From a virus (taxonomy: Duplodnaviria; Caudoviricetes), in the IMG/VR virus record IMGVR_UViG_3300000928_002271, positions 1 to 58,750 of that record: a stretch of 58,750 nucleotides of DNA; one strand, given 5' to 3'. The stretch's first letter is position 1, and each line of letters begins with the position of its first letter. Made by a program: the position numbers and the translations under genes. Shown here one piece after another: positions 4,934 through 58,750 of this stretch. The notes beneath the pieces were generated by a model, which worked only from the letters and a program-made list of their open reading frames with translations, was not told the origin of the DNA and searched no databases.

Positions 4934-4934
4934 A

Positions 4935-8635: not shown

Positions 8636-8645
8636 AACTAATATA

Positions 8646-14688: not shown

Positions 14689-15124
14689 AAAATATTGCTA
14701 GTCCATCACTTGGGAGGAATATAGTAACCATTTTATTTGTTCCATCCTCATATTCATTTACAATAATAGTGATTTTCTGCCCATCTGTTATTTGAACAGC
14801 ATCAATATCAAGAAAACGACCACCATATTTATTTTCCCCTACCTCGTAGTTGTAGATGTTCATTTCATAAAACTCACCATCAGAGATGTTATACATTTTA
14901 ATGTAACCTGTTCCATTATCATTAAAGTATGTTAACCAAACATTGGTTTCAGGGCGACGTTCATCTTTGTCGAAGAACATCCATTTTTCGTCTAAATCAC
15001 TCCATACCATTCTTTGAGTTGAGGTATGGCGGGTGATTAAAACGCTAGGTTCTTGAGCTGGCTTTTGTCCGTAAACACTAAGAGTGGTTAGGGTTATTAA
15101 AAGGCCAAATAATAGCTTTTTCAC
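14669..15124 (-). CDS. Exported hypothetical protein with Sec signal peptide
   Basis: MKKLLFGLLITLTTLSVYG-Q, then a beta-rich mature domain. Confidence 0.75.
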   Translation of the reverse strand: MKKLLFGLLITLTTLSVYGQKPAQEPSVLITRHTSTQRMVWSDLDEKWMFFDKDERRPETNVWLTYFNDNGTGYIKMYNISDGEFYEMNIYNYEVGENKYGGRFLDIDAVQITDGQKITIIVNEYEDGTNKMVTIFLPSDGLAIFFDTNFN

Positions 15125-15324
15125 TTATTAAAATATTCAGTTAAAAATTCTTTAGGATACATCATAACAGATCCTTTGTATTTAGGGTTTGAAACTTCTT
15201 TGGTTTCAAATCCAACTTTTGCTTTAGCAGCTGCTGCAGCTACTTGTTTACCTAGTTCACCACCAGCGGGACGTCCCAGGAAGTCATAAAGACTCATCAT
15301 TTCATTTTCCATATTACAAATCAT
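15121..15324 (-). CDS. Hypothetical protein
   Basis: SLYDFLGRPAG...YPKEFL; overlaps both neighbours. Confidence 0.7.
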   Translation of the reverse strand: MICNMENEMMSLYDFLGRPAGGELGKQVAAAAAKAKVGFETKEVSNPKYKGSVMMYPKEFLTEYFNK

Positions 15325-16102: not shown

Positions 16103-16106
16103 AACT

Positions 16107-16138
16107 TAAATATACAACCTTATTTTTTAAAGTCCAAA
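16107..16138 (-). promoter_or_regulatory. Host-type promoter giving a near-leaderless transcript of the DpdA-like gene
   Basis: TTTG-N20-TATATTTA, then 4 nt, then ATG. Confidence 0.7.
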
Positions 16139-16762
16139 TGCTTTAATAGTTTTCTCAAAAGGATTTCCTTCAATATTTTTTACTTGCTCTAACATTTCTT
16201 GAGCTAAATGTTGAACCTCACGTTGAGCATGTTCACTATTACGGAGTTGTTGGAAATGGGCAAATGAACGAAAATTAAACATTACATCCATTGTAATCTG
16301 GGAGTTGAATGTTTTGAAATAACGAGCAGATTCCTTAGCACGTTTACGTCCCAAAAATGGAGTAAAATATTCAAGTGCTTCGTGATACAGCTTATTTCCT
16401 TCTTCAGCATATTTTTCAAGTTTATTTAACCAACTATTACTCCAGTCATAAGGCAAATACATTTTATCTTCCTTAAGTTCTTTATAACGAGCTGATTCAC
16501 CATTAATTGAGACGCCAATTCGGTGTTTTAGTAGGTGAATATGAGTTGCTTGATCTACTGTTACTAAAAAGTGTAAAGACGATTTTTCAAATGGTGTATG
16601 ATGACCTTCAGTTGCGAGCATTGTAAGTAGTTTTTCTACTCGTCCCAATTTTTCCTCAGTCAAATCTCGTGAGGTTGAAGTCCAAGCTGATTGGGCATGG
16701 ATTAGATCACTACCATAATGTCCTAAAAGTTCTACTTTATTACTGGTTTTTGTTTCAAACAT
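16127..16762 (-). CDS. thyX: FAD-dependent thymidylate synthase
   Basis: GHHTPFE, HLLKHR...NGESARY, NFRSFAHF..LR...HAQREV. Confidence 0.93.
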   Translation of the reverse strand: MFETKTSNKVELLGHYGSDLIHAQSAWTSTSRDLTEEKLGRVEKLLTMLATEGHHTPFEKSSLHFLVTVDQATHIHLLKHRIGVSINGESARYKELKEDKMYLPYDWSNSWLNKLEKYAEEGNKLYHEALEYFTPFLGRKRAKESARYFKTFNSQITMDVMFNFRSFAHFQQLRNSEHAQREVQHLAQEMLEQVKNIEGNPFEKTIKAFGL

Positions 16763-43424: not shown

Positions 43425-43721
43425 TTATTTATAACTAGTTTTAGCTTGATCTTTTTTATTAATATAAGCTTGTTTAATGGTTCCGTCTGGGTTAATGACT
43501 GAGTCTTTAGATGAGGCTTTTTTAGATTGTTCAGCCTGTTCATCGTAGTAACTTTTAATTTTTTTAAAAGTAAAATTACGGAGCCAAATTGGCATATTAT
43601 ATATTTCTCCCCAAGAGTATCCTCCCTTTCCATGAAATACTATCTCATGGATTTGGGAAAATACAGTATTACGTAATGATTTAGCCGAGGTCGGAGTCAG
43701 GCCAAAAAAAGCTAATCCCAA
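43425..43721 (-). CDS. Tail/baseplate assembly chaperone, second part (T4 gp51-like); possibly made by frameshift
   Basis: EIYNMPIWLRNF motif; only a TTG start, inside the upstream gene next to a T7 run. Confidence 0.7.
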   Translation of the reverse strand: MGLAFFGLTPTSAKSLRNTVFSQIHEIVFHGKGGYSWGEIYNMPIWLRNFTFKKIKSYYDEQAEQSKKASSKDSVINPDGTIKQAYINKKDQAKTSYK

Positions 43722-44415
43722 GTGGGAGAGTCCTTTTAACTTTTGATCCGATGGGAAAAAAAGACAGATCTACGTCTGGTTGAAGGTTTGTAATATATTC
43801 TCTTAGTGCCCTGGAGTCTTGAGCCAATAGATACCCATTGACAAATTCGTTAATAGTTTTCTTTTCTCTATCTCCATTAACAGAAGTAATCATATATCTT
43901 AATCGGGTAGTTAATTCCGCTGTTCCTTCCTTATTAATCTTTTTAAGACTATTTAACTCATTTGTAATAAGTAATTCATCTTTATGGGTTAATAATTTAA
44001 CAGTAACCTCATTACCTGAGTTAGGTAAGGTGTAAGGGAATTCATTTAAACCTTTATTAAAGATTGACTCGTCAATTTGTTTATTTTCTAAAGTAGTTAA
44101 GTCTATTTCTTGTTCTACCCCAGCATAACTAAATTTATAATCTTTACCATATCCTAAAATACGAGCTGCTACAAAAACAGCATTTTTATCTCCAATAATA
44201 AGATCATCATAATTTATATCGGAAACAATTAAGGATTTCATTAACCGATCTAATACGGTTCCATCTGTAATATAATTAGCATTAGTAAGAATGTCTTCCT
44301 CTTTAGCTGTCATATATTTCATTTCTATCTTTCCAGAAGATAAGGGATTTGAATCAGGATAAACTAAACCTTTTGAAGGTAGTTCAATAGTTTCTGTTGG
44401 TAATTTAAATTCCAT
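43681..44415 (-). CDS. Tail/baseplate-hub assembly chaperone (T4 gp26-like)
   Basis: ELPSKG..Y, MTAKEEDIL, D...VFVAARI..YG, ends ISFFWP; located between tube and tape measure. Confidence 0.8.
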   Translation of the reverse strand: MEFKLPTETIELPSKGLVYPDSNPLSSGKIEMKYMTAKEEDILTNANYITDGTVLDRLMKSLIVSDINYDDLIIGDKNAVFVAARILGYGKDYKFSYAGVEQEIDLTTLENKQIDESIFNKGLNEFPYTLPNSGNEVTVKLLTHKDELLITNELNSLKKINKEGTAELTTRLRYMITSVNGDREKKTINEFVNGYLLAQDSRALREYITNLQPDVDLSFFPIGSKVKRTLPLGISFFWPDSDLG

Positions 44416-44444
44416 AAACGTATTTAATAATAACTTTGTTCGAG

Positions 44445-44453
44445 TATAAATAT
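44445..44453 (-). promoter_or_regulatory. Putative late promoter ATATTTATA
   Basis: Just downstream of a terminator, 29 nt upstream of the chaperone start. Confidence 0.6.
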
Positions 44454-44459
44454 GAATAT

Positions 44460-44490
44460 AAAAAAGAGCTTGAACGAATCCAAGCTCTCT
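44460..44490 (-). terminator. Rho-independent terminator after the tail tube gene
   Basis: GAGCTTG/CAAGCTC stem followed by TTTTTT on the minus strand. Confidence 0.8.
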
Positions 44491-44513
44491 TTACAAAAAT
44501 ATTTACTTTCTTA

Positions 44514-45002
44514 TTAGAAGTTCAAGATACAGTAATCTGGTTGAACTGTCATTGTAAGGTTTATAGCAGTGTTTTCTGTATCCCAACCATATTCACCAAA
44601 GTTAGCATCAGTGATTAAAGCACCTTTAATGATCCATTCTGATACTACGTCACCAACAGGGCCTAATACGTTGAATGTTAAGTCTTTCTTATAGAAATCA
44701 CTATAACCATCACGACCAGTTACTGATTCGTGGTGTAAACGTACCCATTCCATAACGGCTTGGGCACCAGAAGGAGTAATAGGATCAAATAATGTGAACT
44801 GAACTGTATTCCAAGTTGTTTTTCCTTTCACAAAACGTTGAACGTTGATGTGGTTAAGAGGTACTGTGCCTTGAGTTAAGGTTACGGCACCTACACCTTT
44901 TACGATATAAGCTGGGAATCCGTCCATATACATGATGAACCTGTTTGCTTGTTTTGGTTCAAACGCTGTAAAGAAAATTTCGTTGGGATCTAATACTGCC
45001 AT
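44514..45002 (-). CDS. Tail tube protein (gp19-like)
   Basis: FEPKQANRF, GKTTWN, VMEWVR, YKKD, EWIIKGA; directly after the sheath gene. Confidence 0.88.
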   Translation of the reverse strand: MAVLDPNEIFFTAFEPKQANRFIMYMDGFPAYIVKGVGAVTLTQGTVPLNHINVQRFVKGKTTWNTVQFTLFDPITPSGAQAVMEWVRLHHESVTGRDGYSDFYKKDLTFNVLGPVGDVVSEWIIKGALITDANFGEYGWDTENTAINLTMTVQPDYCILNF

Positions 45003-45022
45003 TGTTATTTATTTTATTCTAT

Positions 45023-45031
45023 TATAAATAT
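45023..45031 (-). promoter_or_regulatory. Putative late promoter ATATTTATA
   Basis: 20 nt upstream of the tube start. Confidence 0.6.
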
Positions 45032-45047
45032 TCGTTATTTAAACTTC

Positions 45048-46787
45048 TTACCCTGGGAAAGTAGCTCCTGTTGGTAATACATTAAAGTCTAGGATAATGA
45101 ATTCTGCTGTTTTAGTTGGTTGGAGATAAATAGCACCTACCATCTGATTTCTGTCGATTACGTCAGGTGTGTTATTTGAATCATCCATTACAACTTTAAA
45201 CGCATATAAACCTTGTCTTTGTTGTACAGACTCTAAATAAGGGTTTACTGCTGCTAAGAAGTTATTTCTTGTGGCGGCTGTATTTTGTTCAAATACCAAG
45301 TTTTGAGAAACTTGACCAATATATCCTTTAAGAGCAATTAATAATCTTCTAACATTTACTCTATCAAGCGCCGAAGCTTGTCTCTGTAATGTCTTTTGAC
45401 CATAAACTACAGTACCGGTTCCAGGGAATGAAGCGATTGGGTTAACGTTATTTTCGTATAAGGTATCTCTGTTAGATTGTGTTAACTTTCTTTCAGGGCG
45501 AATTACGTTGTCTAAACCTCCTCTGTTGATACCCGCTGGAGCAAACCATGGCTCGCTTACACTGTCGTTATATGCGTAAACTCCCCCGATCATTGTTGAC
45601 GCTGGTACCCAAACGTTTTGACCTGAATCAGGGTCAATTGTTTGTAACCAAGGCCAGTACATAGCGGCGTATGAAGTATTTCTTGAAGCTGCTTGAGTTG
45701 TTGTATTAACAATAGTTGCAGCGTAAGTAATAGGATCAAGTACGTAAATGCTATCACCTCTACCTTGAGTGTTATTAATTGCTGTAGTGGTTTGTGAAGC
45801 ATGAACACTATTAAATAAACCAGGAGTTAATAACACATTAAATGCGTAGTCATCTTGGTTAGCTAATAAGTTTAACATATCTGTATAATCACTACCTACA
45901 ACACCTTGTGTTACAGCGCCAGCACCTGTACCTGCTAATTCATAGTAATTACCACCAGCTGTGTAAGTTGAAATATTAGTACCAGTACCACCTGAGAAGG
46001 CACCACCGGCTGATCCTGAACCTACTGCTGGGATAAGATCCACATAAGCGGCTTTAGCATTACCTGCATTATCTAAGTAATTAGGAGTTAAGTTATTAAC
46101 TGTTTTTACTTTAATATATCTTGAAGAGTTAGGGTATGAACCTGATACTTCTAGGTAATTTTCAGTTGAGTTGTAGTTGTATGTAGTATCACCAATTACT
46201 CTAGAAACAAAGTTTGGTTGTGTTGGGTCTAATGATAAGTTATTCCAAGATTCTAAGATAACTGGGTTGTTTGTTGTGTCATCGCCTCTTCTAACTACTA
46301 ATGAAAATACACCAGATGCTGTGTTATTAGAAACAACTTGCCATCTAACGTTATCAATATTACCATTTTCTAAAGCACCACCTGTTAAGATAGTACCATT
46401 ATTATTCCAAACCGCACCTTTATCAATAGCTTCAAAAGTAACAGCCGTACTAGCGTCAATTGCTGGGATTTGGGCGTTTGAGTAACTCCAATCTGTAGCG
46501 GCTGAGCCTGAAACTACTCGAGTTACTAACATTGTGTTTCCACCGTTAGCGAAGTAGTTGTAAGCTGCGATAGAAGTAAAGTAAGAATAGACTAAGCTAC
46601 CACTTTCGAATGTGGTACCAAATCTATTTTGATAATCGCTGTATGATGTAACGAGTGTTGGTACTTCTACAGGACCTTTTACTGTAGGACCTACAAGAGC
46701 AGCACCTACTTGTACAGGTTGCTGCGTGATAAATGACTGGTCATTCTCTCTTGTTAATACACCAGGTGATACTAATGTTTCTGCCAT
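45048..46787 (-). CDS. Contractile tail sheath protein (gp18-like)
   Basis: SPGVLTREND, PWFAPAGINRG, VNPI, GQKTLQ, RVNVRRL, FEQN, PTKTAEFI. Confidence 0.96.
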   Translation of the reverse strand: MAETLVSPGVLTRENDQSFITQQPVQVGAALVGPTVKGPVEVPTLVTSYSDYQNRFGTTFESGSLVYSYFTSIAAYNYFANGGNTMLVTRVVSGSAATDWSYSNAQIPAIDASTAVTFEAIDKGAVWNNNGTILTGGALENGNIDNVRWQVVSNNTASGVFSLVVRRGDDTTNNPVILESWNNLSLDPTQPNFVSRVIGDTTYNYNSTENYLEVSGSYPNSSRYIKVKTVNNLTPNYLDNAGNAKAAYVDLIPAVGSGSAGGAFSGGTGTNISTYTAGGNYYELAGTGAGAVTQGVVGSDYTDMLNLLANQDDYAFNVLLTPGLFNSVHASQTTTAINNTQGRGDSIYVLDPITYAATIVNTTTQAASRNTSYAAMYWPWLQTIDPDSGQNVWVPASTMIGGVYAYNDSVSEPWFAPAGINRGGLDNVIRPERKLTQSNRDTLYENNVNPIASFPGTGTVVYGQKTLQRQASALDRVNVRRLLIALKGYIGQVSQNLVFEQNTAATRNNFLAAVNPYLESVQQRQGLYAFKVVMDDSNNTPDVIDRNQMVGAIYLQPTKTAEFIILDFNVLPTGATFPG

Positions 46788-46809
46788 TGTGTTGGAATTA
46801 TTATTTTAT

Positions 46810-46818
46810 TATAAATAT
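46810..46818 (-). promoter_or_regulatory. Putative late promoter ATATTTATA
   Basis: 22 nt upstream of the sheath start. Confidence 0.6.
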
Positions 46819-46836
46819 TCAAGAGAGAATTAAAAA

Positions 46837-47088
46837 TTAATTGTTTTTAATAAACTCTCCAGATGTTATATCAATTGTACCTTCACCATATTTGTCTTGT
46901 AGTGTTTTTCCAAATTCACTACTTTCGGTTTGGAGTACAGTAATATTAGTTTTTAATTTTTCTTTTTGTAGATTAAGAGATTGAATTTGATATTCTAATT
47001 GACCGAATTGAGTTATTAAACTAGTTTCGTTTTCTTGAATACTTTTTAACCTTTCAAGCTCTTCTTTTGCCAAAAACACTTGTTCCAT
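46837..47088 (-). CDS. Small coiled-coil protein
   Basis: Heptad pattern ending KYGEGTIDITSGEF. Confidence 0.75.
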   Translation of the reverse strand: MEQVFLAKEELERLKSIQENETSLITQFGQLEYQIQSLNLQKEKLKTNITVLQTESSEFGKTLQDKYGEGTIDITSGEFIKNN

Positions 47089-47104
47089 GATGATAAATAT
47101 TATA

Positions 47105-49426
47105 TTATTTTTTACTATTTAAGATGGGTTTAATTTTTTGAAATACTTGCCCCGGGGTAATAGACTTTTGACAGATGTGTTGTTTATCTGTACCCTTCCA
47201 AATTGGGCACCAATCCCAATCACCAGCATCAAACATAAAGTTAGGATTAGTCCAACAAGGAATACAAGCTCCCTCGTTCATAATACGAGTTACTTTAGAA
47301 GTAAATTCGTGGTTTTTATCAGCAAACCCATTAATCATTACTGTGTGTTTACCTAGTCCCCAGTTAAACCAAGATAAACCAGAGCCTAAACCAATAAATA
47401 AATCAGCGTGTAATAAGTAATTCGCTACTGTTGAGAAGGGTTGATTCCATGAATTTATGGTTCCTTGGATAAACAACTCGTTTTTAGTTAAACTAACTAC
47501 CTGATAGCCAGATTGGTTAAGTAATTTTACTAAAGTTTTCCAATAATTGATATTCCATTCTTTACAACCAGCGGTAGCATTAGGACCGATAACAACATAT
47601 TTACCTTTAATCAAACGATTTCCTTTAGAAAAATTTAAACCGTGGTTTACTTCTTTAAATTCCAAACCTAGGATATCAGTAGCAGTTTGTTGTAATGGGA
47701 TTACGTTTACTTGGTTGGGGTATTTATCAAAACAGCTCCATTTATTATCATCACCCTTAAACCAACCTACACGGTATACTGCTGCGCACGAGGTTGATTG
47801 CCCAGGTTCCATAAATTCAATATCTTTATAGGCTTCTAAACCTTTAAACCAATCATTATGGAATGTAGACATAATTACTTTACAATTATGTTTTTTAGCA
47901 AACTCTACAGCGTATGGAGTCCACGCTACAGTATCACCTAATGATTTAGATTCTAAAGTAATCAATACTCGTTGTCCCTCTAAATTAAGTTTATCTACAA
48001 CTTCACCATTTACTTTAATAATCCAGTCTGTATAGTATTTTCTGGAACAAGTAGTCCACATATTATTACTGATAGTTGTGCTATAGATTACTTTATCTGT
48101 TTTAGCATCAATAAATTCAATAAAATATGTTTCTACATTGTCACCTTTAATAAAAACTTTAGGTCCCTCTAGGTATGAAATCTCAATACGATTTGGTTTA
48201 GAAGTAGGTTTATAGGTTTCCATAAAGTTTTGGACAGTTTCCATACCAATTTCAGCTACTCTATCCCAATTAAAATCACGATGGATCAATTTAGCTTCTT
48301 CAATAGCACGTTTTTTATGGTCGGTATAATTTTCGTATGCATCGCGCATTACACGAGCTAAATCCTCAAAATCAGGCTCATAGTAATTACCAGGAATATG
48401 ATTGTCTTTAAGGTTAATACCAAAATTAAAGTAGTTGTTACCGTTGGTTGGTTTTTCACCTAATACTTTTACAGGTAAACCTTTACCCTCAGCAAATTCC
48501 ATTTGAGCACAGCATGCTGAATAGATAGATGGGGTGCCACAAGCCATAGCTTCAATTAATGGTAAATTCCATCCCTCGGCTCTAGCACAAGATAGAAACA
48601 CATGACCATTTTTCATGTATGTAATATAATCTTCTCTAGAAGGGAAGTTTTTAATTTTGATACGTGAATCAATTAAACCATAGTTTTTTAATCTATCTTC
48701 TGTAGTAGTAAAGCCATCTAAATCTTTACCCCATGGATTATCAATTGAAACAATTAAATCAACTGGTTCATTAGATTTAAATTCTTTAAGGAAGGTTTCA
48801 ATAATTTCCTTAGTAGATTTTCTATAATCCCAACGTCCAAATAAAACAAATTTAAAACGTCCGTCTACATAATCTAGTACTGTTTGGGGATCTTCAGGAT
48901 AAAACGTATTTACATCTACACCTTCGGGTACTACTTTTACTTGATCAGGATCTGCGCCCTGTTTAATAGTACACTCACGTTGCCACTTACTAGGAACCCA
49001 AATTTGATCGTATTCTAGTAATTGGTTAAAAAATTCAGTAGGTTGTTCAGTTGACTCCCAAACATTATACCCAATTTTAGGACCAATATACCCATCATAA
49101 AAGAAATGGTGGTTGGTTTCTTCTAAAACAATGTTAACATCGTGTTTAAAATCCTCACCATGATTCTGGTAGATTCTATGGTCAGTTCTTGTTCTATCAG
49201 AATTCCAGAGGGTTTGCTCGTGGAGCAACTTTTTATCAATATCTAAGATATAGGGGTTACCTTCGTGTGGTTCATCACTAGGCCAATTCCATTCTTTACC
49301 AATAGTAAAATTCCTAACCTTAACATCAGTATGTTTAGATAGGTGACGGAAAAAATCTCTAGTGTGATTAGCATAACCAGTGGTTCCTACATAAGAACCG
49401 TGAGCATAAATTTTGGGTTTTTTCAT
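47105..49426 (-). CDS. Fusion: GT4 glycosyltransferase + Aah/TibC-like protein O-heptosyltransferase
   Basis: N-half: RAEGWNLPLIEAMACGTP. C-half (from ~aa 410): SKSLGDTVAW, FIGLGSGLSW, CIPCW...FD..DWDWCP.WKGT..QHICQKSITP. Confidence 0.85.
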   Translation of the reverse strand: MKKPKIYAHGSYVGTTGYANHTRDFFRHLSKHTDVKVRNFTIGKEWNWPSDEPHEGNPYILDIDKKLLHEQTLWNSDRTRTDHRIYQNHGEDFKHDVNIVLEETNHHFFYDGYIGPKIGYNVWESTEQPTEFFNQLLEYDQIWVPSKWQRECTIKQGADPDQVKVVPEGVDVNTFYPEDPQTVLDYVDGRFKFVLFGRWDYRKSTKEIIETFLKEFKSNEPVDLIVSIDNPWGKDLDGFTTTEDRLKNYGLIDSRIKIKNFPSREDYITYMKNGHVFLSCARAEGWNLPLIEAMACGTPSIYSACCAQMEFAEGKGLPVKVLGEKPTNGNNYFNFGINLKDNHIPGNYYEPDFEDLARVMRDAYENYTDHKKRAIEEAKLIHRDFNWDRVAEIGMETVQNFMETYKPTSKPNRIEISYLEGPKVFIKGDNVETYFIEFIDAKTDKVIYSTTISNNMWTTCSRKYYTDWIIKVNGEVVDKLNLEGQRVLITLESKSLGDTVAWTPYAVEFAKKHNCKVIMSTFHNDWFKGLEAYKDIEFMEPGQSTSCAAVYRVGWFKGDDNKWSCFDKYPNQVNVIPLQQTATDILGLEFKEVNHGLNFSKGNRLIKGKYVVIGPNATAGCKEWNINYWKTLVKLLNQSGYQVVSLTKNELFIQGTINSWNQPFSTVANYLLHADLFIGLGSGLSWFNWGLGKHTVMINGFADKNHEFTSKVTRIMNEGACIPCWTNPNFMFDAGDWDWCPIWKGTDKQHICQKSITPGQVFQKIKPILNSKK

Positions 49427-49427
49427 A

Positions 49428-50177
49428 TTATCTCATTATTTCACAACCACCATCTATACCACGGGTTCCATTAAATCCGTGCCAAATGGGTTTGAGGGGT
49501 ACTTGATTATTTCTTAGATGTTGGGCTATTAATGTTTCGTTTATAAACATATCAGTATAAAACTGATAGTATTCAGGGTCCACAAATATAATACGGAGCA
49601 TGTGGGTAAACACGTTACAGTAAATTTTCATTAAATCATATCCACCAACTGCGAATGTATCATTTAGCTGATCGGCCATTTTCCAATGTGGTGGGTATTC
49701 AAAATAATGAATGTAGTTTGGGTCATATTTAGTAACGTCTTCTAATAAGGGGCAATTATTAGCTACTCGGTGGGTAAATAATAAATCGTATCGAGTTTTA
49801 ATAACTAAATCATACTTAATACCTGTTGCCTCCATTAAATCCCAAGAGCGTTTTAATGATAACCACATACTCATTTGGGAATTAAGGCGTTGATTGTTTG
49901 GACCTTTTAAATCAGCAGCATCAAATTTAATAGCAGGTTCAAATAAATAATCTTTAGGTTGATACCAATCAACTAAATTCTGATATAAATTATTCTCTAC
50001 ATTATAAACCTTCTGTAATTTACCTTCATTAAAGAAATCATATTTGTGGAATACTTTATCTTCCCAAGCGTGTAAATACACATCGACATCATATCTATCT
50101 AAAAACCATTTTTTTAGGTCTTTAAATCCATTTCTATACCTACGTGGTTGACCACTAACTAATATTGCTATTTTCAT
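49428..50177 (-). CDS. Putative glycosyltransferase-like protein (SGQPR family), paralog 1
   Basis: MKIAILVSGQPR, DVYLHAW, YDLVIKTRYDL, NDTFA. Confidence 0.55.
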   Translation of the reverse strand: MKIAILVSGQPRRYRNGFKDLKKWFLDRYDVDVYLHAWEDKVFHKYDFFNEGKLQKVYNVENNLYQNLVDWYQPKDYLFEPAIKFDAADLKGPNNQRLNSQMSMWLSLKRSWDLMEATGIKYDLVIKTRYDLLFTHRVANNCPLLEDVTKYDPNYIHYFEYPPHWKMADQLNDTFAVGGYDLMKIYCNVFTHMLRIIFVDPEYYQFYTDMFINETLIAQHLRNNQVPLKPIWHGFNGTRGIDGGCEIMR

Positions 50178-50938
50178 CGTAATATGTTAGCTGTAAAATA
50201 TTCTGTTAGACTTTTTACGTAATTTATTTCTACTTCATTAGAAACTAAGTGGTATTTTAATACTGTTTCTGGGTGGATTGGGTCAGGGTTTTCAGATATG
50301 ACTGTATCTAACCACGCTTTATACGCATCATTCATGTAAATATAGGATATCGCATACGTGAAATAATCAGCATAAATACCCGCAATTTCAGGCGAACTAA
50401 CGGCAAATAAATCATCAACCTCGGAGTGTCTTGTTGTGTGGCCTTCAGGTGTTAATGGATATTCAAATACATTAAGTTTATTAGGGTCTAATAAAGATAA
50501 ATCTTTTAGAAATAGACATTCGGGTGAAATATAATCAGTAAATTCTAGATCAAATCTAGTTCTAATAATTAAATCATATTCAATTCCAGAGTTTCTAACT
50601 AAATTATAACAAGCATGGATTGAATAAGAAGCACTTAATAAACTATTTAATTTATAATTTAAGGGCGTTCCTTTAATATTAGTTGTATCAAATGGAATAG
50701 GTTTTTGAAAAAAATAATCCTTAGGTTTAAATAGATCTAATATTTTAGAATAGTCATCGTCTTCAAATTCATATGTTCTAGCCTGAGCGAATTTATGACC
50801 TGCTTCCATAGCAGAGTCATCTTTCCAAGTATGAATGTAAATATCACAATCATACTTAGAAAGAAACCATTTTTTTAATTCGGCAAACCCTTGTTTGTAA
50901 TTACGAGGTTGACCACTAATACAAACTGCTATTTTCAT
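50174..50938 (-). CDS. Putative glycosyltransferase-like protein (SGQPR family), paralog 2
   Basis: MKIAVCISGQPR, DIYIHTW, YDLIIRTRFDL, DDLFA. Confidence 0.55.
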   Translation of the reverse strand: MKIAVCISGQPRNYKQGFAELKKWFLSKYDCDIYIHTWKDDSAMEAGHKFAQARTYEFEDDDYSKILDLFKPKDYFFQKPIPFDTTNIKGTPLNYKLNSLLSASYSIHACYNLVRNSGIEYDLIIRTRFDLEFTDYISPECLFLKDLSLLDPNKLNVFEYPLTPEGHTTRHSEVDDLFAVSSPEIAGIYADYFTYAISYIYMNDAYKAWLDTVISENPDPIHPETVLKYHLVSNEVEINYVKSLTEYFTANILR

Positions 50939-51552
50939 TATCTATAGTGACCTCCTCCTAACCATAATACAAATGATTTACGAGTACCTTTAGTAACTGG
51001 GGTGACTCTATGCATCATAAATGATGGGAAAATTACTACATTACCTTTACCTCGTGGTGCTGTATATGGGTATTGACCACCTGTCCAAATTTGTAAATCA
51101 CCACCTTCGTATTCATCGGGGCTTGAGAGTTGGACTGTAATAGAGATTTTACGGAATTTCATAAAACCATCTGCTCCAATATCCATGTGCCAATCATAGT
51201 GACCTTTGTTTGATCCATAATATTCTGTGTATTGAATATTTTCGGGCATGTTGTGGATATCAAATTGAAACATTTCAGAGTTAGCTGTCATAGCCATTTC
51301 TCCTAATTTGTCATAAATCCATTTAGTTTCGGGAGAAAACGGCATCCATTTAATTTGTGAATTACGCGCTTCTAAACCCTCGCCTTGATCTTGACCACCA
51401 GCCTCTGTAATACCAGGTTGGAAAGGAACATCAAGTACTTGTTGTTCAATTAATTCTAATTCTTCAGGTGTGAAACCTTCACCAAACCAATAATAGTTGG
51501 TTTGATTGACATACTTGTCAAATGGTAATGGAAATGAATAGGTTGAATCCAT
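50938..51552 (-). CDS. 2OG-Fe(II) dioxygenase (P4Hc/PKHD-type)
   Basis: WHMD...RKISITVQLS..EYEGGDL...FPSFMMHRVTPVTKGTRKS (HxD...H...R). Confidence 0.92.
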   Translation of the reverse strand: MDSTYSFPLPFDKYVNQTNYYWFGEGFTPEELELIEQQVLDVPFQPGITEAGGQDQGEGLEARNSQIKWMPFSPETKWIYDKLGEMAMTANSEMFQFDIHNMPENIQYTEYYGSNKGHYDWHMDIGADGFMKFRKISITVQLSSPDEYEGGDLQIWTGGQYPYTAPRGKGNVVIFPSFMMHRVTPVTKGTRKSFVLWLGGGHYR

Positions 51553-51555
51553 AAT

Positions 51556-53931
51556 TTATTTTTTGGTAAATGAAACTAATATGTAACGTGTGCCTTCTTC
51601 TACTGGTCTACCCCCGTGGAGGTGAGTAATAGTACCTGGGTGAGACATAACGTTACCAATTTTACGTGGTTGAACTGTTGTTTTATATTTGGGTAAATAG
51701 GTACCTCCACCTTTAAAATCATTATTTAATCTTACGTTCAATGTAATAACAGAATCGTCGTGATGCAAGTCTAAACTACCCTGATTTACAGTATCATATT
51801 TAGCGATAAAATTTTCACTGCCTAGAGTTTTCCAGGTATCACCTGTAAGTTCCCAATACCAAATCCAAATTGGATATACAAATTCCTCTAATACTCTTTG
51901 GTAAATATGTTGTACACCTAAACTTTCCATTGTTTGGTCAGTTGTAGGATAAAATTCATGGCGATCAGTTACCCAAGTATTATTTTCAGCTAATTCGATA
52001 ATTTCATTACAGAATTTTTCAGTAAATAATGGGAATTCAATTACGTTAGGAGCAATTTCATCTACCATCAAACGTGATTGACCTTTGCGAATAAAAGGAT
52101 TAATGTATTTATCACACCATTCTTCCCAATTTTGAATTTGCATAATTTCAGGCAAATCACTTAATACAGTAGGTTCAGGTCTAACATAAAATGTAGTACC
52201 TGGGCTGGCTTTTTGTTCGTAATAATTAACAATGGGAGCGGCTGCTTTTAATCGAGTTTTACCACTATATTCACCTAAAATTTCCTGACGATGAGTCATT
52301 CCATAGGTAATAGGTAAAAATTCATCAATAGCAAACATAGCTCCTTTAAATTGTTCAAGATATTCCTCTACTAAAATTTGAATACCTTTTTTAGATAAAA
52401 TATAAGCATGAGCATTGTATGAATAATCAGGTTCAACCCAACCTAAAACACCTTCGATAGGTTGTTCTAAATCTGCTTTGAGAGCACTACGACCTAAATA
52501 AATTAGATCATAACCCATATCTAATAGTTGTTGAACCTGGTCCCAGGGTACTTGGATTTCTTCGTGGAAATCATCCTCAAAAATAATAGCTACTTCGTGG
52601 TCTTTAGCATATGAATCTACCCAAGCATCTACGTGAGAGAGTGAACAACCTAATTCACCATCCATTACATCACGAGACCACCATTCATTAGGAGTATTAA
52701 ATTTCCAACGTGGATGTTTTTTAACACCAAATTTTTCTAAAATTTCGGGGAATTCAGGTGATTTAGCATTAAATCCAGGTTTAATCCAGTATGGGGTATT
52801 AGGTTCTGGGAGATTGACGTTTGTGCATTTTTCCTGTAATTCAGGCGTTTCATTTGTGCTTAGAACGTAGAAATAATCAATTTTCATATTTAACTTTGTT
52901 ATTAATGGTAACCATTTGTCTTTTGTAACAATTCTCCAATCATTATAATGTATATAGGATTTAACTAAATTCCAATTTATATTTTCATAAATATTACGAG
53001 TATTAAACCCATGTAATGTTTCTTTTAACCCTCCCCATTCCCACGTTATTGGTTGAACCTTATGCCCTAACATTTCTAGGGCAGTGATACAGAATGTTTC
53101 TTCATAATCACTAGGGTAATACCAATATGAACTACTTGCCATTAGTGGGTATAGTTCTTGTTGGGGTAATGTACCAACAAATTCTACACCATCCAAACTA
53201 TCTACCCATTCTTTAAAATAAAGATTATAATATTCTAACCCATATGCTGGAGTAGCTATTTTTAAAGTAGCGTCAGGAGTATTTTTTACAATAGAAGGCC
53301 ATTCCTCCAATAAACGTTGTAACCCACGTTCAGCGTGGGAGGTGTAGATGTATTGATTATCGTTTTTTATATTATGTTTTTGGTTACCTGGGAATAGTTT
53401 TCCTTGTTTTATTTTGGGGGTAGGCCAAACATCTATAAAATTGGATTTTTCAACACCATTTCCAATAACAATAGTTTTACCTAACGCTTCGGGGAATTGT
53501 TCTATAAATTTATTTTGATGCCAATAGGTTAAACATACTATATGAGATAATTTAGGATGTTTTAATAATTCTCTATGGTTTTTTAATTCAGTACCTCTCC
53601 ACCAAGTAAAATAATCAGTGTTATGAACCCAAAATATAGAGTTTTTGTAATTAAAATCCTCAAATTCCTTTAAATAATGAATATATGATGTAGCTATAAT
53701 AGTGTCTACTGAATCAGTCTCATTTTTGAATGTTTGAGTGGTTCTGTATTTGACTTTATCGTAATCACCTTCGATTACATCGCCTACTACCCATACCTCG
53801 TTTCCGGGATACGATACCAAATATTTGGAGAGATACAGAACACATTGTTCTGTACCTCCCAAACCAGTTGAATTTATAAATGTTGGGTTCCAAGGTTTAT
53901 TTTGATATCCCGTGTATAAAACTATTTTCAT
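51556..53931 (-). CDS. Tri-domain enzyme: GT4-like + GT25 (COLGALT-like) + PLOD-like lysyl hydroxylase
   Basis: aa 1-345: GLGGTE, ETFCITALE. aa 349-580: GELGCSLSH, FEDD, DLIYLGR, DYSYNAHAY, IDEFLP. aa 600-791: FPLFTEKFC, YPTTD, NFIAKY, HHDDSVITLNV, GGGT, HPGTITHLHGG, GTRYILVSF. Confidence 0.88.
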   Translation of the reverse strand: MKIVLYTGYQNKPWNPTFINSTGLGGTEQCVLYLSKYLVSYPGNEVWVVGDVIEGDYDKVKYRTTQTFKNETDSVDTIIATSYIHYLKEFEDFNYKNSIFWVHNTDYFTWWRGTELKNHRELLKHPKLSHIVCLTYWHQNKFIEQFPEALGKTIVIGNGVEKSNFIDVWPTPKIKQGKLFPGNQKHNIKNDNQYIYTSHAERGLQRLLEEWPSIVKNTPDATLKIATPAYGLEYYNLYFKEWVDSLDGVEFVGTLPQQELYPLMASSSYWYYPSDYEETFCITALEMLGHKVQPITWEWGGLKETLHGFNTRNIYENINWNLVKSYIHYNDWRIVTKDKWLPLITKLNMKIDYFYVLSTNETPELQEKCTNVNLPEPNTPYWIKPGFNAKSPEFPEILEKFGVKKHPRWKFNTPNEWWSRDVMDGELGCSLSHVDAWVDSYAKDHEVAIIFEDDFHEEIQVPWDQVQQLLDMGYDLIYLGRSALKADLEQPIEGVLGWVEPDYSYNAHAYILSKKGIQILVEEYLEQFKGAMFAIDEFLPITYGMTHRQEILGEYSGKTRLKAAAPIVNYYEQKASPGTTFYVRPEPTVLSDLPEIMQIQNWEEWCDKYINPFIRKGQSRLMVDEIAPNVIEFPLFTEKFCNEIIELAENNTWVTDRHEFYPTTDQTMESLGVQHIYQRVLEEFVYPIWIWYWELTGDTWKTLGSENFIAKYDTVNQGSLDLHHDDSVITLNVRLNNDFKGGGTYLPKYKTTVQPRKIGNVMSHPGTITHLHGGRPVEEGTRYILVSFTKK

Positions 53932-53957
53932 TAAAATTAAAACCTATTTTCGTTTTT

Positions 53958-56900
53958 TTACATTCTTACTGCATCAATTAAATATCCTGAATCGAATGAT
54001 AATAACCAAGTGGGTTGTCTAGTTCCTAGGTTTAAATCATAGTCTCCAGATATACCAATATCTACGTTTTGACCTCCAGGTGCACCTTTTGGACCGATTG
54101 GACCTTGTGGACCGATTGGACCGATTGGACCTCTTGCTCCAATACCTGCAGCTGGGCCGATTGGACCAATAGCACCAATTGGGCCTTGTGGTCCTGGTAA
54201 ACCGCTACTACGGAACCAATATGCTGTATTAGTATAGCTAATTGTTCCAGGGGGGGGATTTTGGATACAATAGTAGATATTAGGGTATGGTAATTCAGCA
54301 ACTTTAACACCATCTCCTACGTAAAATGATTCGTTAATATCCCAAATACTCAAATTTGGGGAATTATATGCTAAACCACCAGCACCTTTAGGACCTATTG
54401 GACCGATTGCTCCGATTCCGGCATTATTACCTCTTGGACCACGAGGACCGATAGCACCAATTCCGGCATTTGGACCTGCAGCACCTTGTGGACCTCTTGG
54501 ACCAATGTTACCAATACCAGCATTGTCACCTTGAGGACCGATTGGACCAATGGGGCCTTTAGCTCCGATTCCAGGAGTAACACCTACAGGACCTCTTGGA
54601 CCAATGGGGCCTTTAGCTCCGATTCCAGGAGTAACACCTACAGGACCTCTTGGACCAATTGGACCGATAGCTCCAATGCCAGCATCTGTACCTCTTGGAC
54701 CAATTGCACCTCTTGGACCAATAGCACCTTGTGCACCGATTGGACCAATAGAGCCAATAGGACCTTGAGGTCCAATAGCTCCAATTCCAGGAGTTACACC
54801 AACCGGACCTCTTGGACCAATAGCACCAATAGCTCCAATTCCAGGAGTTACACCTACTGGACCACGAGGACCAATAGCACCAATTCCGGCATTAGCACCT
54901 TGAGGACCTCTTGGACCAATGGGGCCTTTAGCTCCGATTCCAGGAGTAACACCTACAGGACCTCTTGGACCAATTGGACCTCTTGCTCCAATACCAGCGG
55001 AATCACCTACTGGACCACGAGGACCAATAGCACCAATTCCAGGAGTGACACCTTGAGGACCTCTTGGACCAATAGCACCAATAGCTCCAATTCCAGGAGT
55101 TACACCAACCGGACCTCTTGGACCAATTGGACCTCTTGCTCCAATTCCAGGAGTTACACCAACCGGACCTCTTGGACCAATTGGACCTCTTGCTCCAATA
55201 CCAGCGTTATCACCTAATGGACCACGAGGACCAATAGCACCAATTCCGGCATTAGCACCTTGAGGACCTCTTGGACCAATAGTACCAATAGCTCCAATTC
55301 CAGGAGTTACACCAACCGGACCTCTTGGACCAATTGGACCTCTTGCTCCAATACCAGCGTTATCACCTAATGGACCACGAGCACCAATTGGACCTCTAGC
55401 TCCAATACCTGGGGTGACACCTACAGGACCACGGGGACCAATAGCACCAATTCCGGCATCTGTACCTCTTGGACCAATTGGACCAATAGCTCCAATTCCA
55501 GGAGTGACACCAACCGGACCTCTTGGACCAATATTACCAATGTTACCAATTGGACCTCTATTTCCTATATTACCAATGTTACCAATTGGACCTCTTGGAC
55601 CAATAGCTCCAATTCCAGGAGTTACACCAACCGGACCGCGAGCACCAATTGGACCAATAGCTCCAATACCCGGGGTGACACCTACAGGACCTCTTGGGCC
55701 AATGTTACCAATGTTACCAATTGGACCTCTTGGACCAATTGCACCAATAACACCTTGAACTCCTTGTGGGCCGATAGCTCCAATACCTGGAGTAACACCT
55801 ACGGGACCACGGGGACCAATATTACCAATGTTTCCGATTGGGCCTCTATTTCCAATATTACCAATATTACCTTGAACACCTTGTGGACCAATAGCTCCAA
55901 TTCCGGGAGTTACACCTACAGGACCTCTTGGGCCGATGTTACCGATAGCTCCAATTGCACCTGAGGGGCCGATTGGACCACGAGGACCAATAGCTCCAAT
56001 TCCAGGAGTTACACCAACCGGACCGCGAGCACCAATTGGACCAATAGCTCCAATTGCACCTGAGGGGCCGATTGGACCACGAGGACCGATAGCACCAATT
56101 CCAGGAGTGACACCTACAGGACCACGAGGACCGATAGCACCAATTGGACCTTGAACACCTTGAGGTCCGATTGGACCCTGTTGTGTTGGACCTAATGGAC
56201 CGATTGGACCAATAGCTCCAATAGCTCCTTGATCACCTGTAACTGTACCACGTGGACCAATATCACCTCCTGGACCTAGAGGGCCGATGGGACCTTGTTG
56301 GGTAGGACCAATTGGACCAATAGCTCCAATAGCTCCCTGGTCACCAGTAGTAGTACCACGTGGTCCTATATTACCTATATTTCCTTGTGGACCGATTGGG
56401 CCCTGTTGAGTAGGACCAATTGGGCCAATAGCTCCAATTGCACCTTGGTCTCCTACAGCTGTACCGCGAGGACCAATGTTACCTATATTTCCTTGTGGAC
56501 CGATTGGGCCCTGTTGAGTAGGACCAATTGGGCCAATAGCTCCAATTGCACCTTGGTCTCCAACTTCTGTACCACGTGGTCCAATATTACCAATGTTACC
56601 AATGTTTCCAATTGGACCCTGTTGAGTAGGACCAATTGGGCCAATTGCACCAATAGGGCCTTGGTCTCCTACAGCTGTACCGCGAGGACCAATGTTACCT
56701 ATATTTCCTTGTGGGCCGATTGGACCCTGTTGAGTAGGACCAATTGGGCCAATAGCTCCAATTGCACCTTGGTCTCCTACAGCTGTACCGCGAGGACCAA
56801 TGGGACCTTGAACACCTTGAGGTCCGATAGGACCTTGTTGTGTTGGACCAATTGGACCGATTGGGCCGATTGCACCAACAGGACCTTGGTCTCCTGTAGC

Positions 56901-57758
56901 TGTACCACGTGGGCCAATATTACCTTGTGGGCCTAATGGACCTAATGGACCTTGTTGTGTTGGGCCTAGTGGACCGATTGGACCAATAGCACCAATAGCT
57001 CCTTGATCACCAACTTCTGTACCACGTGGTCCAATTGCTCCTATTACACCTGGATTGCCAATTAGGCCGATTGGGCCTATTGCACCAATAGGACCTTGAT
57101 CTCCGGTAGCTGTGCCTCGTGGACCAATTGCTCCGATAGCACCAATAGGACCAATTGGACCTTGTTGTGTTGGACCTAATGGACCAATTGGACCGATAGC
57201 ACCGACTGGGCCTTGGTCTCCTACAGCTGTACCGCGGGGACCAATTGCTCCAATAGGACCTTGTAGGCCAATTGGACCAATTGCTCCAATTGCACCATTT
57301 GGACCTTGATCTCCTACAGCTGTACCGCGTGGACCAATTGTACCAATATTACCTTGTGGACCTAATGTACCAATTGGACCTATAGCACCGACTGGGCCTT
57401 GGTCTCCTACAGCTGTACCGCGGGGACCAATTGCTCCAATAGGACCTTGTGGGCCTGTTAAATTAATAGCTCCCCCACCATTACCTACAATAACTAATTG
57501 TTTAGTATTAGTGTCATAGTAAATATCACCAGCAAGAGCATCACTAGGAATAGCGCTTCTAACTGGGAGATTTAATAACGCTCCATCTGGAATAGAAACT
57601 CTACTGCGGGTAGGATCTAAAGATAATAGAGTCGTACCTGAGGTATCAGTTATAGATACCCCAGTTGACGATTCATATGTGAGTTTGATGTTACCAACTC
57701 CATCTTCAATAAAATCTAAACTCCCTGAGTTGGGAATTATCTGGACATTTTTAGCCAT
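53958..57758 (-). CDS. Collagen-like tail fibre protein 1 (1266 aa)
   Basis: About 1030 aa of interrupted Gly-X-Y repeats ([12 protein letters not shown]) between a ~100-aa N-terminal domain and a C-terminal region with a W...GD.V...Y.C module. Confidence 0.88.
54080..57455. repeat. Coding tandem repeats (9-bp-based ggaccaatt/ggacctctt units) of collagen fibre 1
   Basis: Hierarchical degenerate repeats with synonymous variation. Confidence 0.9.
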
Positions 57759-57781
57759 ATCTTAATATTACCCTACTATTA

Positions 57782-58750
57782 TTAGTTTACTGTGGTTAAA
57801 ACACCGTTATTAAAGAATAATACAGGTCCTTCACCTACGTTAGTTGTTATACCAGCAGGAGCTGCATTTCCTTTTGGACCGATAGGACCGATTGAACCTC
57901 TAGGACCAATAGGACCTTGTGGACCGATTGGAGATGAACCACCTGGGCCTATATTACCTTGTGGGCCGATAGGACCTTGTTGTCCATTGTTACCAACAGC
58001 ACCTACAGGACCGATTGGACCGATAGGACCGATTGGTGAACTACCTCCTGGACCTTGTGGTCCGATAGGACCGATTGGAGATGAACCACCAGGACCGATT
58101 GAACCTTTAGGACCGATAGGACCGATTGGAGATGTACCTGCTGTTCCTTTTGGACCAATTGAGCCGATAGGACCTTGGGGAGATATAGGACCGATTGGAG
58201 ATGAACCTGCTGTTCCTTTTGGACCAATTGAGCCGATAGGACCAATTGGAGATGAACCTGCTGTTCCTTTAGGACCAATATTACCCTGAGGACCGATTGG
58301 AGATGAACCACCAGGACCAATTGGACCTTGTGGTCCGATAGGACCAATTGGGGAATTACCTTGTGGACCAATAGGACCAATTGCACCTTGGGGACCAATT
58401 GGTGAGCTACCTGCTGTTCCTTTTGGACCGATAGGACCAATAGGACCGATTGGTGAACTACCTCCTGGACCTTGTGGTCCGATAGGACCGATTGGAGATG
58501 AACCTGCTGTTCCTTTAGGACCAATATTACCAATAGGACCGATTGGAGATGAACCTGCTGTTCCTTTTGGACCGATAGGACCTTGTGGACCGATTGGAGA
58601 TGAACCTGTTGTTCCTTTTGGACCAATAGGACCGATTGGAGAGGAACCTTGAGTACCTTTTGGACCGATAGGACCAATAGGACCGATTGGAGAGGAACCT
58701 TGAGTACCTTTTGGACCGATAGAACCAATAGGACCGATTGGAGATGAACC
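57782..58750 (-). CDS. Collagen-like fibre protein 2, 5'-truncated by the window
   Basis: Not in the ORF track. Minus frame from 58750 reads [23 protein letters not shown]...GPKGNAAPAGITTNVGEGPVLFFNNGVLTTVN, stop TAA at 57782..57784. Confidence 0.88.
   Translation of the reverse strand, partial: GSSPIGPIGSIGPKGTQGSSPIGPIGPIGPKGTQGSSPIGPIGPKGTTGSSPIGPQGPIGPKGTAGSSPIGPIGNIGPKGTAGSSPIGPIGPQGPGGSSPIGPIGPIGPKGTAGSSPIGPQGAIGPIGPQGNSPIGPIGPQGPIGPGGSSPIGPQGNIGPKGTAGSSPIGPIGSIGPKGTAGSSPIGPISPQGPIGSIGPKGTAGTSPIGPIGPKGSIGPGGSSPIGPIGPQGPGGSSPIGPIGPIGPVGAVGNNGQQGPIGPQGNIGPGGSSPIGPQGPIGPRGSIGPIGPKGNAAPAGITTNVGEGPVLFFNNGVLTTVN

Follow-up and report, generated by a model that had tools for sequence, protein, structure and literature searches.

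A candidate cassette for making, hydroxylating and glycosylating collagen-like fibres beside the tail sheath gene of a tailed phage

Why should a tailed phage encode, next to its collagen-like fibre genes, relatives of the enzymes that hydroxylate and glycosylate collagen in animals? The question is raised by the IMG/VR virus record IMGVR_UViG_3300000928_002271 (Duplodnaviria; Caudoviricetes), whose 58,750 bp were analysed as a whole and are called the window here; its estimated completeness is 36%, and every gene lies on the minus strand. The seven-gene block at 47105-58750, which adjoins the tail sheath gene, comprises two collagen-like fibre genes, a fusion of GT4 and GT25 glycosyltransferase (GT) domains with a PLOD-type lysyl hydroxylase (LH), a stand-alone 2-oxoglutarate (2OG)-Fe(II) oxygenase, two SGQPR proteins, and a fusion of GT4 and TibC-like domains (Table 1). 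A first-pass annotation had described this block and proposed that its enzymes hydroxylate and glycosylate the fibres; all seven genes were found in place on the one strand, and profile and sequence matches confirm the domain calls for the oxygenase and the two fusions, the second of which had been labelled GT4/heptosyltransferase-like. The block is probably a cassette of late genes for producing the collagen-like fibres and for their chemical maturation in the infected cell. Homology, catalytic residues, gene adjacency and the covariation of fibres with enzymes speak for the proposed hydroxylation and glycosylation. Three details of the proposal lack support or need revision, namely the action of the TibC-like enzyme on serines of helix interruptions, the idea of fibre glycans as bait for glycan-foraging Bacteroidota, and heptose as the sugar.

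In both fibres, the G-x-y periodicity is far above chance, as measured with the Pfam Collagen profile, and the triplets in runs of at least four number 308 in the 1266-aa fibre 1 and 65 in the partial fibre 2. In fibre 1, a globular N-terminus of ~100 aa precedes a long G-x-y region with interruptions, after which only a short C-terminal part follows; the N-terminus shares 31-41% identity with those of collagen open reading frames (ORFs) in related loci. The Peptidase_S74 domain was not found in the 1266-aa fibre of the window; in relatives, such fibre-chaperone domains stand at the C-termini of one (GSS)n, one type-A and one type-B fibre, which identifies the related collagen-like proteins as virion fibres.

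The placement of Lys within the repeats agrees with the first description, since all 11 Lys of the partial fibre and 5 of the 9 of fibre 1 sit in G-X-K-G (the remainder lie outside the repeats), and G-K-x-G occurs in neither fibre. The long fibre uses Arg in place of Lys, with 52 of its 58 Arg in G-x-R-G, and the preference of basic residues for the Y position is general here. Pro is found almost only in the X position (G-P-x-G occurs 148 times in the long fibre and 48 in the partial one), and the classic site of prolyl 4-hydroxylase (P4H), X-Pro-Gly, is nearly absent because G-x-P-G occurs just 3 and 0 times. The partial fibre is composed of GPI, GPK and GPQ triplets broken by GSSPIG, all 14 copies of which lie in this gene; the other Ser/Thr interruptions of the helix, likewise anticipated, are GVTPG (17 copies), GPTQQG (9) and GTAVG (6). 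Long frames that overlap the collagen genes in antisense or out of frame (54486-55217 and 56295-56936 on the plus strand, 58003-58728 on the minus strand) and are rich in Ser/Thr/Asn/Trp or in Val/Leu/Gln are by-products of the triplet repeats, not genes. Moreover, G+C rises over 54-58 kb, from ~33% to ~49%, because the collagen genes are rich in Gly and Pro codons.

The enzyme that follows the fibres, the 791-aa fusion, carries at residues 594-789 an LH domain that matches human LH3 (E 1.4e-23) and Mimivirus L230 (E 8.9e-21; 28-30% identity), and P4Hs with just E 0.04. Specifically, H723, D725 and H772, which form the iron triad, and R782, which binds 2OG, correspond in the alignment to the HHD...H...R of LH3, presumably its residues 667, 669, 719 and 729, and are kept in 12 of 14 fusion homologues, one of the other two being truncated and one substituted. 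The accessible text of the L230 study gives the equivalents in that enzyme as H825, D827, H877 and R887 (PMC9614988). The LH domain is a predicted 5-hydroxylase of Lys in X-Lys-Gly. The substituted homologue is full-length and has Ser/Tyr/Tyr/Gln at the positions of D725, H770, H772 and R782 in the alignment of the 14 fusion homologues; its degenerate LH domain, kept inside the fusion, is probably an inactive hydroxylase.

The fold agrees with these assignments. The AlphaFold model of the fusion (pLDDT 84) has LH3 as its best Foldseek match (E 2.6e-23), aligns with L230 at a TMt of 0.82-0.84 and a root-mean-square deviation of 2.6-3.6 Å, and also matches COLGALT1 (E 9e-16). In the GT25 region, residues ~416-553 match the catalytic domain of COLGALT1, the procollagen galactosyltransferase of humans (E 5e-14), with the FEDD motifs aligned, and within the acidic motif E452 is kept in 14 of 14 homologues and D454 in 13 of 14; the putative DXD of L230 is E106-D107-D108, as its study states in the accessible text (PMC9614988). 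The four PDB matches of the GT25 domain are all COLGALT1, with no bacterial lipopolysaccharide (LPS) GT25 among them for comparison, and the main argument for a collagen-type rather than an LPS-type GT25 is its fusion to the LH domain. The Foldseek matches of the GT4 domain are GT-B enzymes of the retaining kind, the best being the alpha-1,2-glucosyltransferase Tll1591 (TMt 0.67).

Oxygenases and GTs side by side could also modify the bases of phage DNA, as in T-even or J-base-like systems. Phages often pair 2OG oxygenases with GTs for this purpose, the fusion has weak matches to phrog_2297 'DNA endonuclease' (E 3.6e-10) and to 'glucosyltransferase', and tblastn with its GT4 part finds genes annotated 'beta4glucosyltransferase' in three phage records. 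Such a role is nevertheless very improbable, given that the oxygenase domain is of the PLOD type and not of the TET/JBP type, that the genes are packed closely with those of the fibres on one strand within the structural module, that the TibC type is a family of protein Ser-glycosyltransferases, and that the covariation of fibre chemistry described below would be left unexplained.

For the fusion, 276 homologous protein clusters were retrieved, the best 120 of which are 43-100% identical, mostly full-length with some covering 63-88%, and include no informative name. One contig of 63,112 bp encodes an identical fusion protein. The NCBI copy is called 'hypothetical protein [bacterium]', and the JGI name for homologues is 'glycosyltransferase involved in cell wall biosynthesis'. 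The gene family is already visible in databases, since the automatic names of UniProt include 'procollagen-lysine 5-dioxygenase [uncultured Caudovirales phage]'. When 185,579 prokaryote genomes were scanned by means of the fusion alignment, using patterns derived from the GT4 part, only 4 matches came up, and these are GT4-only.

The JGI name would suit a quite different function, in which the GTs remodel the LPS or capsule of the host, for example to block superinfection, and the collagen genes are mere neighbours in a host-recognition region. GTs in the host-recognition clusters of pelagimyophages have been interpreted as host-surface remodelling enzymes in the accessible text of PMC7029224. 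This explanation is unlikely for the window: a PLOD-type LH, its Fe/2OG site intact, forms one protein with GTs although LPS synthesis has no use for such a domain; the GT9-like domain belongs, by its iron finger and N-terminal barrel, to the protein-modifying Aah/TibC type and not to the WaaC type; and the covariation between enzyme content and fibre residues would again go unexplained.

The assignment of the GT9-like domain is based on the 773-aa fusion, residues 410-765 of which match TibC (E 2.3e-41) in an alignment that begins at TibC residue 20, within the N-terminal barrel. It scores 230.7 bits against the cut-off of 200 for the NCBIfam equivalog TIGR04414 (Aah/TibC), with 365 of 374 profile positions covered, whereas the LPS heptosyltransferase I model gives 21.6 bits against a cut-off of 185. 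C721, C724, C740 and C752 align with the iron-finger Cys339, Cys342, Cys358 and Cys370 of TibC and D498 aligns with D110, and all five residues are invariant in 9 of 9 homologues. In the accessible text on the TibC structure, D110 is the residue mutated in the ligand complex and the N-terminal barrel spans residues 1-97 (PMC4358343). Upstream of GT4-TibC in the window and in the mapped related loci stand fibre and enzyme genes, with no autotransporter beta-helix passenger among them as a substrate (no dedicated search for autotransporter domains was made), and the domain appears to be a BAHT-like enzyme with a different predicted substrate.

The best solved relatives of the 204-aa oxygenase are PKHD-type hydroxylases (E 2e-8), a P4H following with just E 0.006. 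The SGQPR products begin MKIA..SGQPR and match neither Pfam nor NCBIfam; for protein B, the protein atlas gives DUF7796 as a lead, and its AF2 model (pLDDT 91.8) retrieves GT6, GT8 (glycogenin) and LH3-GT enzymes by Foldseek at E 4e-6 and probability 1.00, with a TM of only 0.38-0.46. No DxD motif was identified in the SGQPR proteins, which on the model resemble retaining GT-A glycosyltransferases, an assignment that is not proven. Their paralogue number varies among relatives, with four in L019 (3673-6663), three in L021 (7736-10000) and one in L027.

If the enzymes serve the fibres, the two should travel together, and the first-pass annotation had named their co-occurrence across phage genomes as a check. 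A scan of IMG/VR with the alignment of 14 fusion homologues gave 80 loci, 61 of which carry a relative with GT25 and/or LH; in 47 of these 61, 1 kb or more of DNA precedes the first enzyme gene, which makes them evaluable. Upstream collagen ORFs with G-x-K-G are present in all 47, and in 19 of 19 evaluable clusters (of 28) after clustering at 90% identity; of the other 14 loci, whose upstream DNA is too short, 5 nonetheless contain the end of a collagen ORF; among loci with GT4-only relatives, 0 of 19 have a collagen ORF. Five architectures keep the pairing: the GT4-GT25-LH fusion beside the sheath as in the window (type A); this fusion in a different lineage (35-37% identity), with its collagen gene placed after the portal gene and ahead of Laminin_G_3 and DUF6445 proteins (type B); GT4 encoded apart from GT25-LH (type C); GT4-LH, which lacks GT25 (type D); and, on an unrelated contig found by an independent pattern scan (L189), GT25-LH without GT4, two genes past a Lys-rich collagen. 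LH implies collagen; collagen does not imply LH.

An insertion hot spot might produce a similar picture, in that the fibre-sheath junction would collect auxiliary genes whose products act on other phage or host proteins, or an LH with a non-collagen substrate. That the junction holds in relatives a methyltransferase insert, a 2OG oxygenase with five unknown ORFs, or nothing agrees with this idea, as do a locus with a stand-alone LH-like ORF and no collagen gene in 18.8 kb (L088) and the lack of LH beside most Lys-bearing phage collagens of an unanchored sample. The hot spot is still an unlikely explanation, because the pairing recurs beside the portal gene and in the GT25-LH form of an unrelated contig, because LH and G-x-K-G are discordant in 0 of 33 loci, and because Lys is nearly excluded from the X position in LH-linked fibres.

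The last two points come from the comparison of fibre chemistry with enzyme content. The 63 distinct collagen ORFs that neighbour LH relatives contain 11040 triplets, with 2422 instances of G-x-K-G and 11 of G-K-x-G, against 212 and 74 in the 4505 triplets of 81 collagen-like ORFs without LH in the stretch; this control was drawn haphazardly by a composition-neutral pattern scan of collagen-like coding DNA in IMG/VR, which gave at least 118 stretches, the first 80 of which were used. The GT4-TibC alignment in turn retrieved 384 viral-contig relatives, and the best 80 of the 384 were used. Among these, many loci without LH, 2OG oxygenase and SGQPR genes have a collagen-like gene directly upstream of GT4-TibC, and the fibres of the LH-less loci are of the form (GSS/GTS)n, with 0 G-x-K-G in 2819 triplets of 15 distinct ORFs and a Ser+Thr content of 40%. 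Both traits are readable in 33 GT4-TibC loci, of which 24 have LH and G-x-K-G, 9 have neither and 0 are discordant. A tree of 77 GT4-TibC proteins shows six or more changes in the state of the LH module. Moreover, the PF13640 oxygenase is present in the locus for 44 of 47 collagen ORFs in which Pro fills 20% or more of the X positions, versus 11 of 32 others.

In the LH-bearing loci with enough upstream DNA, the fibre farthest upstream is also (GSS/GTS)n, so that a gene of this kind probably lies just past the end of the window. TibC is in the locus for 17 of 19 S-type ORFs, and of three evaluable S-type fibres in the unanchored sample, two have GT4(-TibC) and one (L202) is without. This separate upstream class of relatives' fibres is a likelier target of the TibC-like enzyme than the Ser of the helix interruptions, to which the first-pass annotation had pointed. 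The cultured Microcystis phage Mel-JY01 (L287, PP395634.1) has at 2-3052 on the plus strand an open frame of at least 1016 aa with 181 triplets, mostly GTS/GSS, and no G-x-K-G, followed by a Ser-rich structural protein and then by a 1226-aa GT4-...-TibC-like protein annotated 'methyltransferase FkbM'. As the frame starts at the first bases, the fibre gene may wrap round the ends of the linear record. The frame is unannotated in the deposit, which lists instead antisense ORFs at 1-651 and 739-2298 (minus strand) and a 177-aa C-terminal piece.

Sequence, fold and comparative genomics thus establish domain identity, kept catalytic residues, gene order, co-occurrence and covariation with fibre chemistry. 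Several points nonetheless weigh against enzymatic maturation of the fibres, beginning with the fact that their modification is itself inferred from sequence. GT4, GT25 (Pfam 'LPS biosynthesis protein') and GT9-like domains are classic LPS enzyme families. Lys is scarce in some LH-linked fibres, with 5 G-x-K-G in the 1266-aa fibre and just 4 in each of two fibres of a complete relative. The stability of the triple helix alone is expected to place basic residues in the Y position, Arg behaves likewise, and an acidic X with Lys in Y is the pattern that this stability favours on its own. The Y position of Lys is therefore given less weight as evidence, since Arg does the same and Lys collagens without LH are common: in the unanchored sample, 26 of 27 Lys-type collagen ORFs have no LH nearby, several of them with at least 3 kb of downstream DNA. 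Conversely, L088, one of the 19 loci with GT4-only relatives, has a stand-alone LH-like ORF and a GT4 relative yet no collagen ORF in 18.8 kb, and one of the 14 fusion homologues has a degenerate LH triad. The anchored locus sets consist of related phages, so that their raw counts are not independent, and the link between LH and Lys comes down to 3-4 phylogenetically independent contrasts, all of them concordant (sign test, p = 0.25). As for the TibC-like half, no (GSS)n fibre lies within the window itself, the (GSS)n fibre of L202 has no TibC in 7.8 kb downstream, and gmhA, which bears on the donor sugar, was found neither in the window nor in a complete 170-kb relative (G001). A search for ADP-heptose synthesis gave only a sub-threshold cytidylyltransferase-like ORF, and 'heptose' is here only a family name for the TibC-like domain, unproven as its sugar.

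Maturation of the fibres by the cassette would proceed late in infection, on chains that have not yet trimerised. The LH domain would use Fe2+, 2OG and O2 to make 5-hydroxylysine at the Y-position Lys of G-x-K-G on unfolded chains, and the GT25 domain would add a hexose to the new hydroxylysine, like COLGALT1 and the N-terminal domain of L230. The N-terminal GT4, and possibly also the two GT-A-like SGQPR proteins, would then extend the glycan. GT25 enzymes invert and GT4 enzymes retain, so that a beta-then-alpha disaccharide like the Glc-Gal-hydroxylysine of animals is possible. The 204-aa oxygenase may hydroxylate the X-position Pro of G-P-x. Lastly, the GT4-TibC fusion would O-glycosylate Ser/Thr, its main substrate probably being the (GSS/GTS)n fibre beyond the contig end and perhaps also the GSSP and GVTP interruptions. 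Speculatively, the fibres could benefit by a more stable and better hydrated triple helix and/or by being shielded from proteases. O-glycans stabilise a Pro-poor triple helix in the cuticle collagen of a vent worm, which carries galactosyl-threonine.

A wider version of this scheme can be put forward only tentatively. It holds that phages possess a full collagen-maturation pathway in the bacterial cytoplasm, in which a three-domain enzyme, equivalent to a fused LH3/COLGALT1, makes hydroxylysine and its glycan, a TibC-type enzyme densely O-glycosylates (Gly-Ser-Ser)n into glycan-stabilised, hydroxyproline-free triple-helical fibres, and fibres and matching enzymes are swapped as units among abundant aquatic phages.

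Table 1. Coordinates of the cassette, its protein domains and the adjoining tail genes in the window.
Feature	Position	Strand	Extent	Evidence or remark
Collagen-like fibre gene 2	57782..58750	-	322 aa visible, 5' part cut by contig end	PF01391 E 2.1e-13
Collagen-like fibre gene 1	53958..57758	-	1266 aa	PF01391 E 3.7e-65
GT4-GT25-LH fusion gene	51556..53931	-	791 aa	
GT4 (GT-B) domain	52897..53931	-	791-aa fusion, residues ~1-345	PF13692/PF00534
GT25 domain	52162..52896	-	791-aa fusion, residues ~346-590	PF01755 32.1 bits vs cut-off 24
PLOD-type LH domain	51559..52152	-	791-aa fusion, residues ~594-791	LH3 E 1.4e-23
Stand-alone 2OG-Fe(II) oxygenase, P4H/PKHD superfamily	50938..51552	-	204 aa	PF13640 E 9.5e-15; phrog_61
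SGQPR protein B	50174..50938	-	254 aa, starts MKIAVCISGQPR	phrog_13607; GT-A-like model
SGQPR protein A	49428..50177	-	249 aa, starts MKIAILVSGQPR	paralogue of B, 37% identity
GT4-TibC-like fusion gene	47105..49426	-	773 aa	
GT4 domain	48227..49426	-	773-aa fusion, residues ~1-400	PF00534 E 1.3e-9; phrog_2170 E 8.7e-30
TibC/Aah-type (BAHT) O-glycosyltransferase domain	47108..48199	-	773-aa fusion, residues ~410-773	TibC PDB 4rap E 2.3e-41
Conserved ORF between cassette and sheath	46837..47088	-	83 aa	same position in related loci
Tail sheath	45048..46787	-		PF04984/PF17482; phrog_23 E 1.3e-77

The genes of the block overlap by 4 nt at most or lie up to 26 nt apart (spacing of -4 to +26 nt), and a single transcription unit therefore looks likely. 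Consensus scans for promoters and terminators over 43500-58750 gave no signal (47 and 12 sites versus 48.3 and 11.9 expected), and no tRNA genes were found in the window. The 83-aa ORF has no family match in Pfam or PHROG profile searches; downstream of the sheath stand the tube and then the baseplate hub. Other products of the window include a DNA polymerase, a ribonucleotide reductase and a DnaB-like helicase, as well as a GroEL-like chaperonin (1363-2985, minus strand; phrog_5725, E 4.6e-159) and a Nol-like O-carbamoyltransferase (30743-32578, minus strand; phrog_1601, E 9e-120), whose substrate could be a sugar or a nucleotide and just downstream of which lie large ORFs without a PHROG match.

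The region around the cassette differs in content among relatives. At L013 (12998-14559), a Methyltransf_24 protein (PF13578, E 2.4e-8) and a family-less 305-aa ORF stand between GT4-TibC and the 83-aa ORF, and L036 has similar-sized ORFs in the same place (14655-16270). At L239 (3654-9999), a 2OG oxygenase and five ORFs of ~195-556 aa, the latter without a match to the window enzymes, lie between a Lys-free collagen gene and GT4-TibC; the same gene run is present in L229 and L236 with no collagen gene visible, and the 233-kb contig L277 has a similar set plus a second stand-alone TibC-like ORF. The LH-like ORF of L088 (4842-5453; 203 aa, E 1e-34) and its separate GT4 relative (9995-10990) belong to an island of small genes. 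In the close relative L145 (sheath E 2e-228), short collagen-like stretches of 18-20 triplets without G-x-K-G occur at 4529-9143 on the minus strand, and the modification enzymes are absent upstream of the sheath.

A megablast comparison of window positions 44000-54000 with cultured phages gave no match at the DNA level. Judged by the sheath protein, Flavobacterium phage vB_FspM_immuto (52% identity) and Mel-JY01 (51.5%) are the closest relatives in culture, the hosts being Flavobacterium and the cyanobacterium Microcystis, and Bacteroidota are only one possible host group for the phage of the window. In immuto, tail-fibre genes occupy the place of the cassette, and neither a collagen match nor a relative of the 791-aa fusion was found there. 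The N- and C-terminal non-collagen parts of the window fibres do not match its tail-fibre region significantly (best E 0.19); the label 'tail fibre' therefore relies on position and on the S74 domains of relatives.

If the proposed maturation is real, tailed phages enzymatically mature collagen fibres of kilodalton scale, and the system would be widespread, the fusion having 276 protein clusters and GT4-TibC 384 relatives on viral contigs. It would offer compact, cytoplasm-active enzymes for producing hydroxylated, glycosylated recombinant collagen in bacteria, bear on the origin of the PLOD and COLGALT enzymes, and provide a reading other than LPS synthesis for GTs in the host-recognition regions of phages. 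The prediction is directly testable, and the cultured Mel-JY01 is a starting point for its TibC/(GTS)n half.

Virion glycosylation has reportedly been published for mycobacteriophages. The glycosylation of collagen hydroxylysine is, to our knowledge, seen as a feature of animals, with a single exception among viruses. Phage collagens are dismissed in the accessible text of a 2022 review on prokaryotic collagens as motifs of ~18 residues that are mostly unmodified (PMC8968730), and the use of prolyl hydroxylases by viruses has been termed 'cryptic' (PMC9301287). In full-text searches of open-access papers, none was found on a phage PLOD/GT25 enzyme or its linkage to fibre genes, nor on a phage TibC-type enzyme with (GSS)n fibres.

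Among known systems, the BclA-type spore proteins of Bacillus and Clostridioides are prokaryotic collagen-like filaments with O-glycans in the collagen-like region; unlike the fibres of the window, they are cellular and without hydroxylysine, and the accessible text of the review reports no PLOD, GT25 or TibC enzymes for them (PMC8968730). Iyer, Abhiman, de Souza and Aravind (2010) described bacterial operons of 2OG dioxygenases and sulfotransferases with collagen-like or tail-collar proteins, for which hydroxylation followed by further modification was predicted (PMC2938197, accessible text). Those operons differ from the window in that they lack the PLOD/GT25/TibC set and are not a phage fibre module.

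The TibC-like domain shares with TibC and Aah (BAHT) the equivalog cut-off, the catalytic Asp, the four iron-finger Cys, the N-terminal barrel and, as predicted here, Ser in highly repetitive proteins as acceptor. It differs in being fused to an N-terminal GT4, and its predicted substrate is a collagen-like (GSS/GTS)n phage fibre instead of an autotransporter. The 791-aa fusion combines the two catalytic modules of animal LH3 (PLOD3) and COLGALT1, retains their Fe/2OG triad, 2OG-binding Arg and FEDD motif, and is accompanied by fibres that likewise carry Lys in the Y position. In the window, however, these modules form one chain, whereas the animal enzymes form a two-protein complex (PDB 8zgc is listed as such); the GT-A glucosyltransferase domain of LH3 is absent and a GT-B GT4 stands in its place; the setting is the cytoplasm instead of the endoplasmic reticulum; and the fibres are almost without Y-position Pro.

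The closest precedent is Mimivirus L230, a lysyl hydroxylase and glucosyltransferase that acts on G-x-K-G of viral collagen-like proteins (L71, R240 and others), with activity demonstrated in vitro according to the accessible text of its study (PMC9614988). Both are virus-encoded PLOD-type hydroxylases fused to a GLT25D1-like glycosyltransferase. Unlike L230, the window enzyme is known from sequence and model, would work in a bacterial and not an amoebal host, and has an extra N-terminal GT4; moreover, its gene adjoins those of its presumed substrates in a tail-fibre module, to which the window adds a P4H-like oxygenase, two GT-A-like proteins and a TibC-like enzyme.

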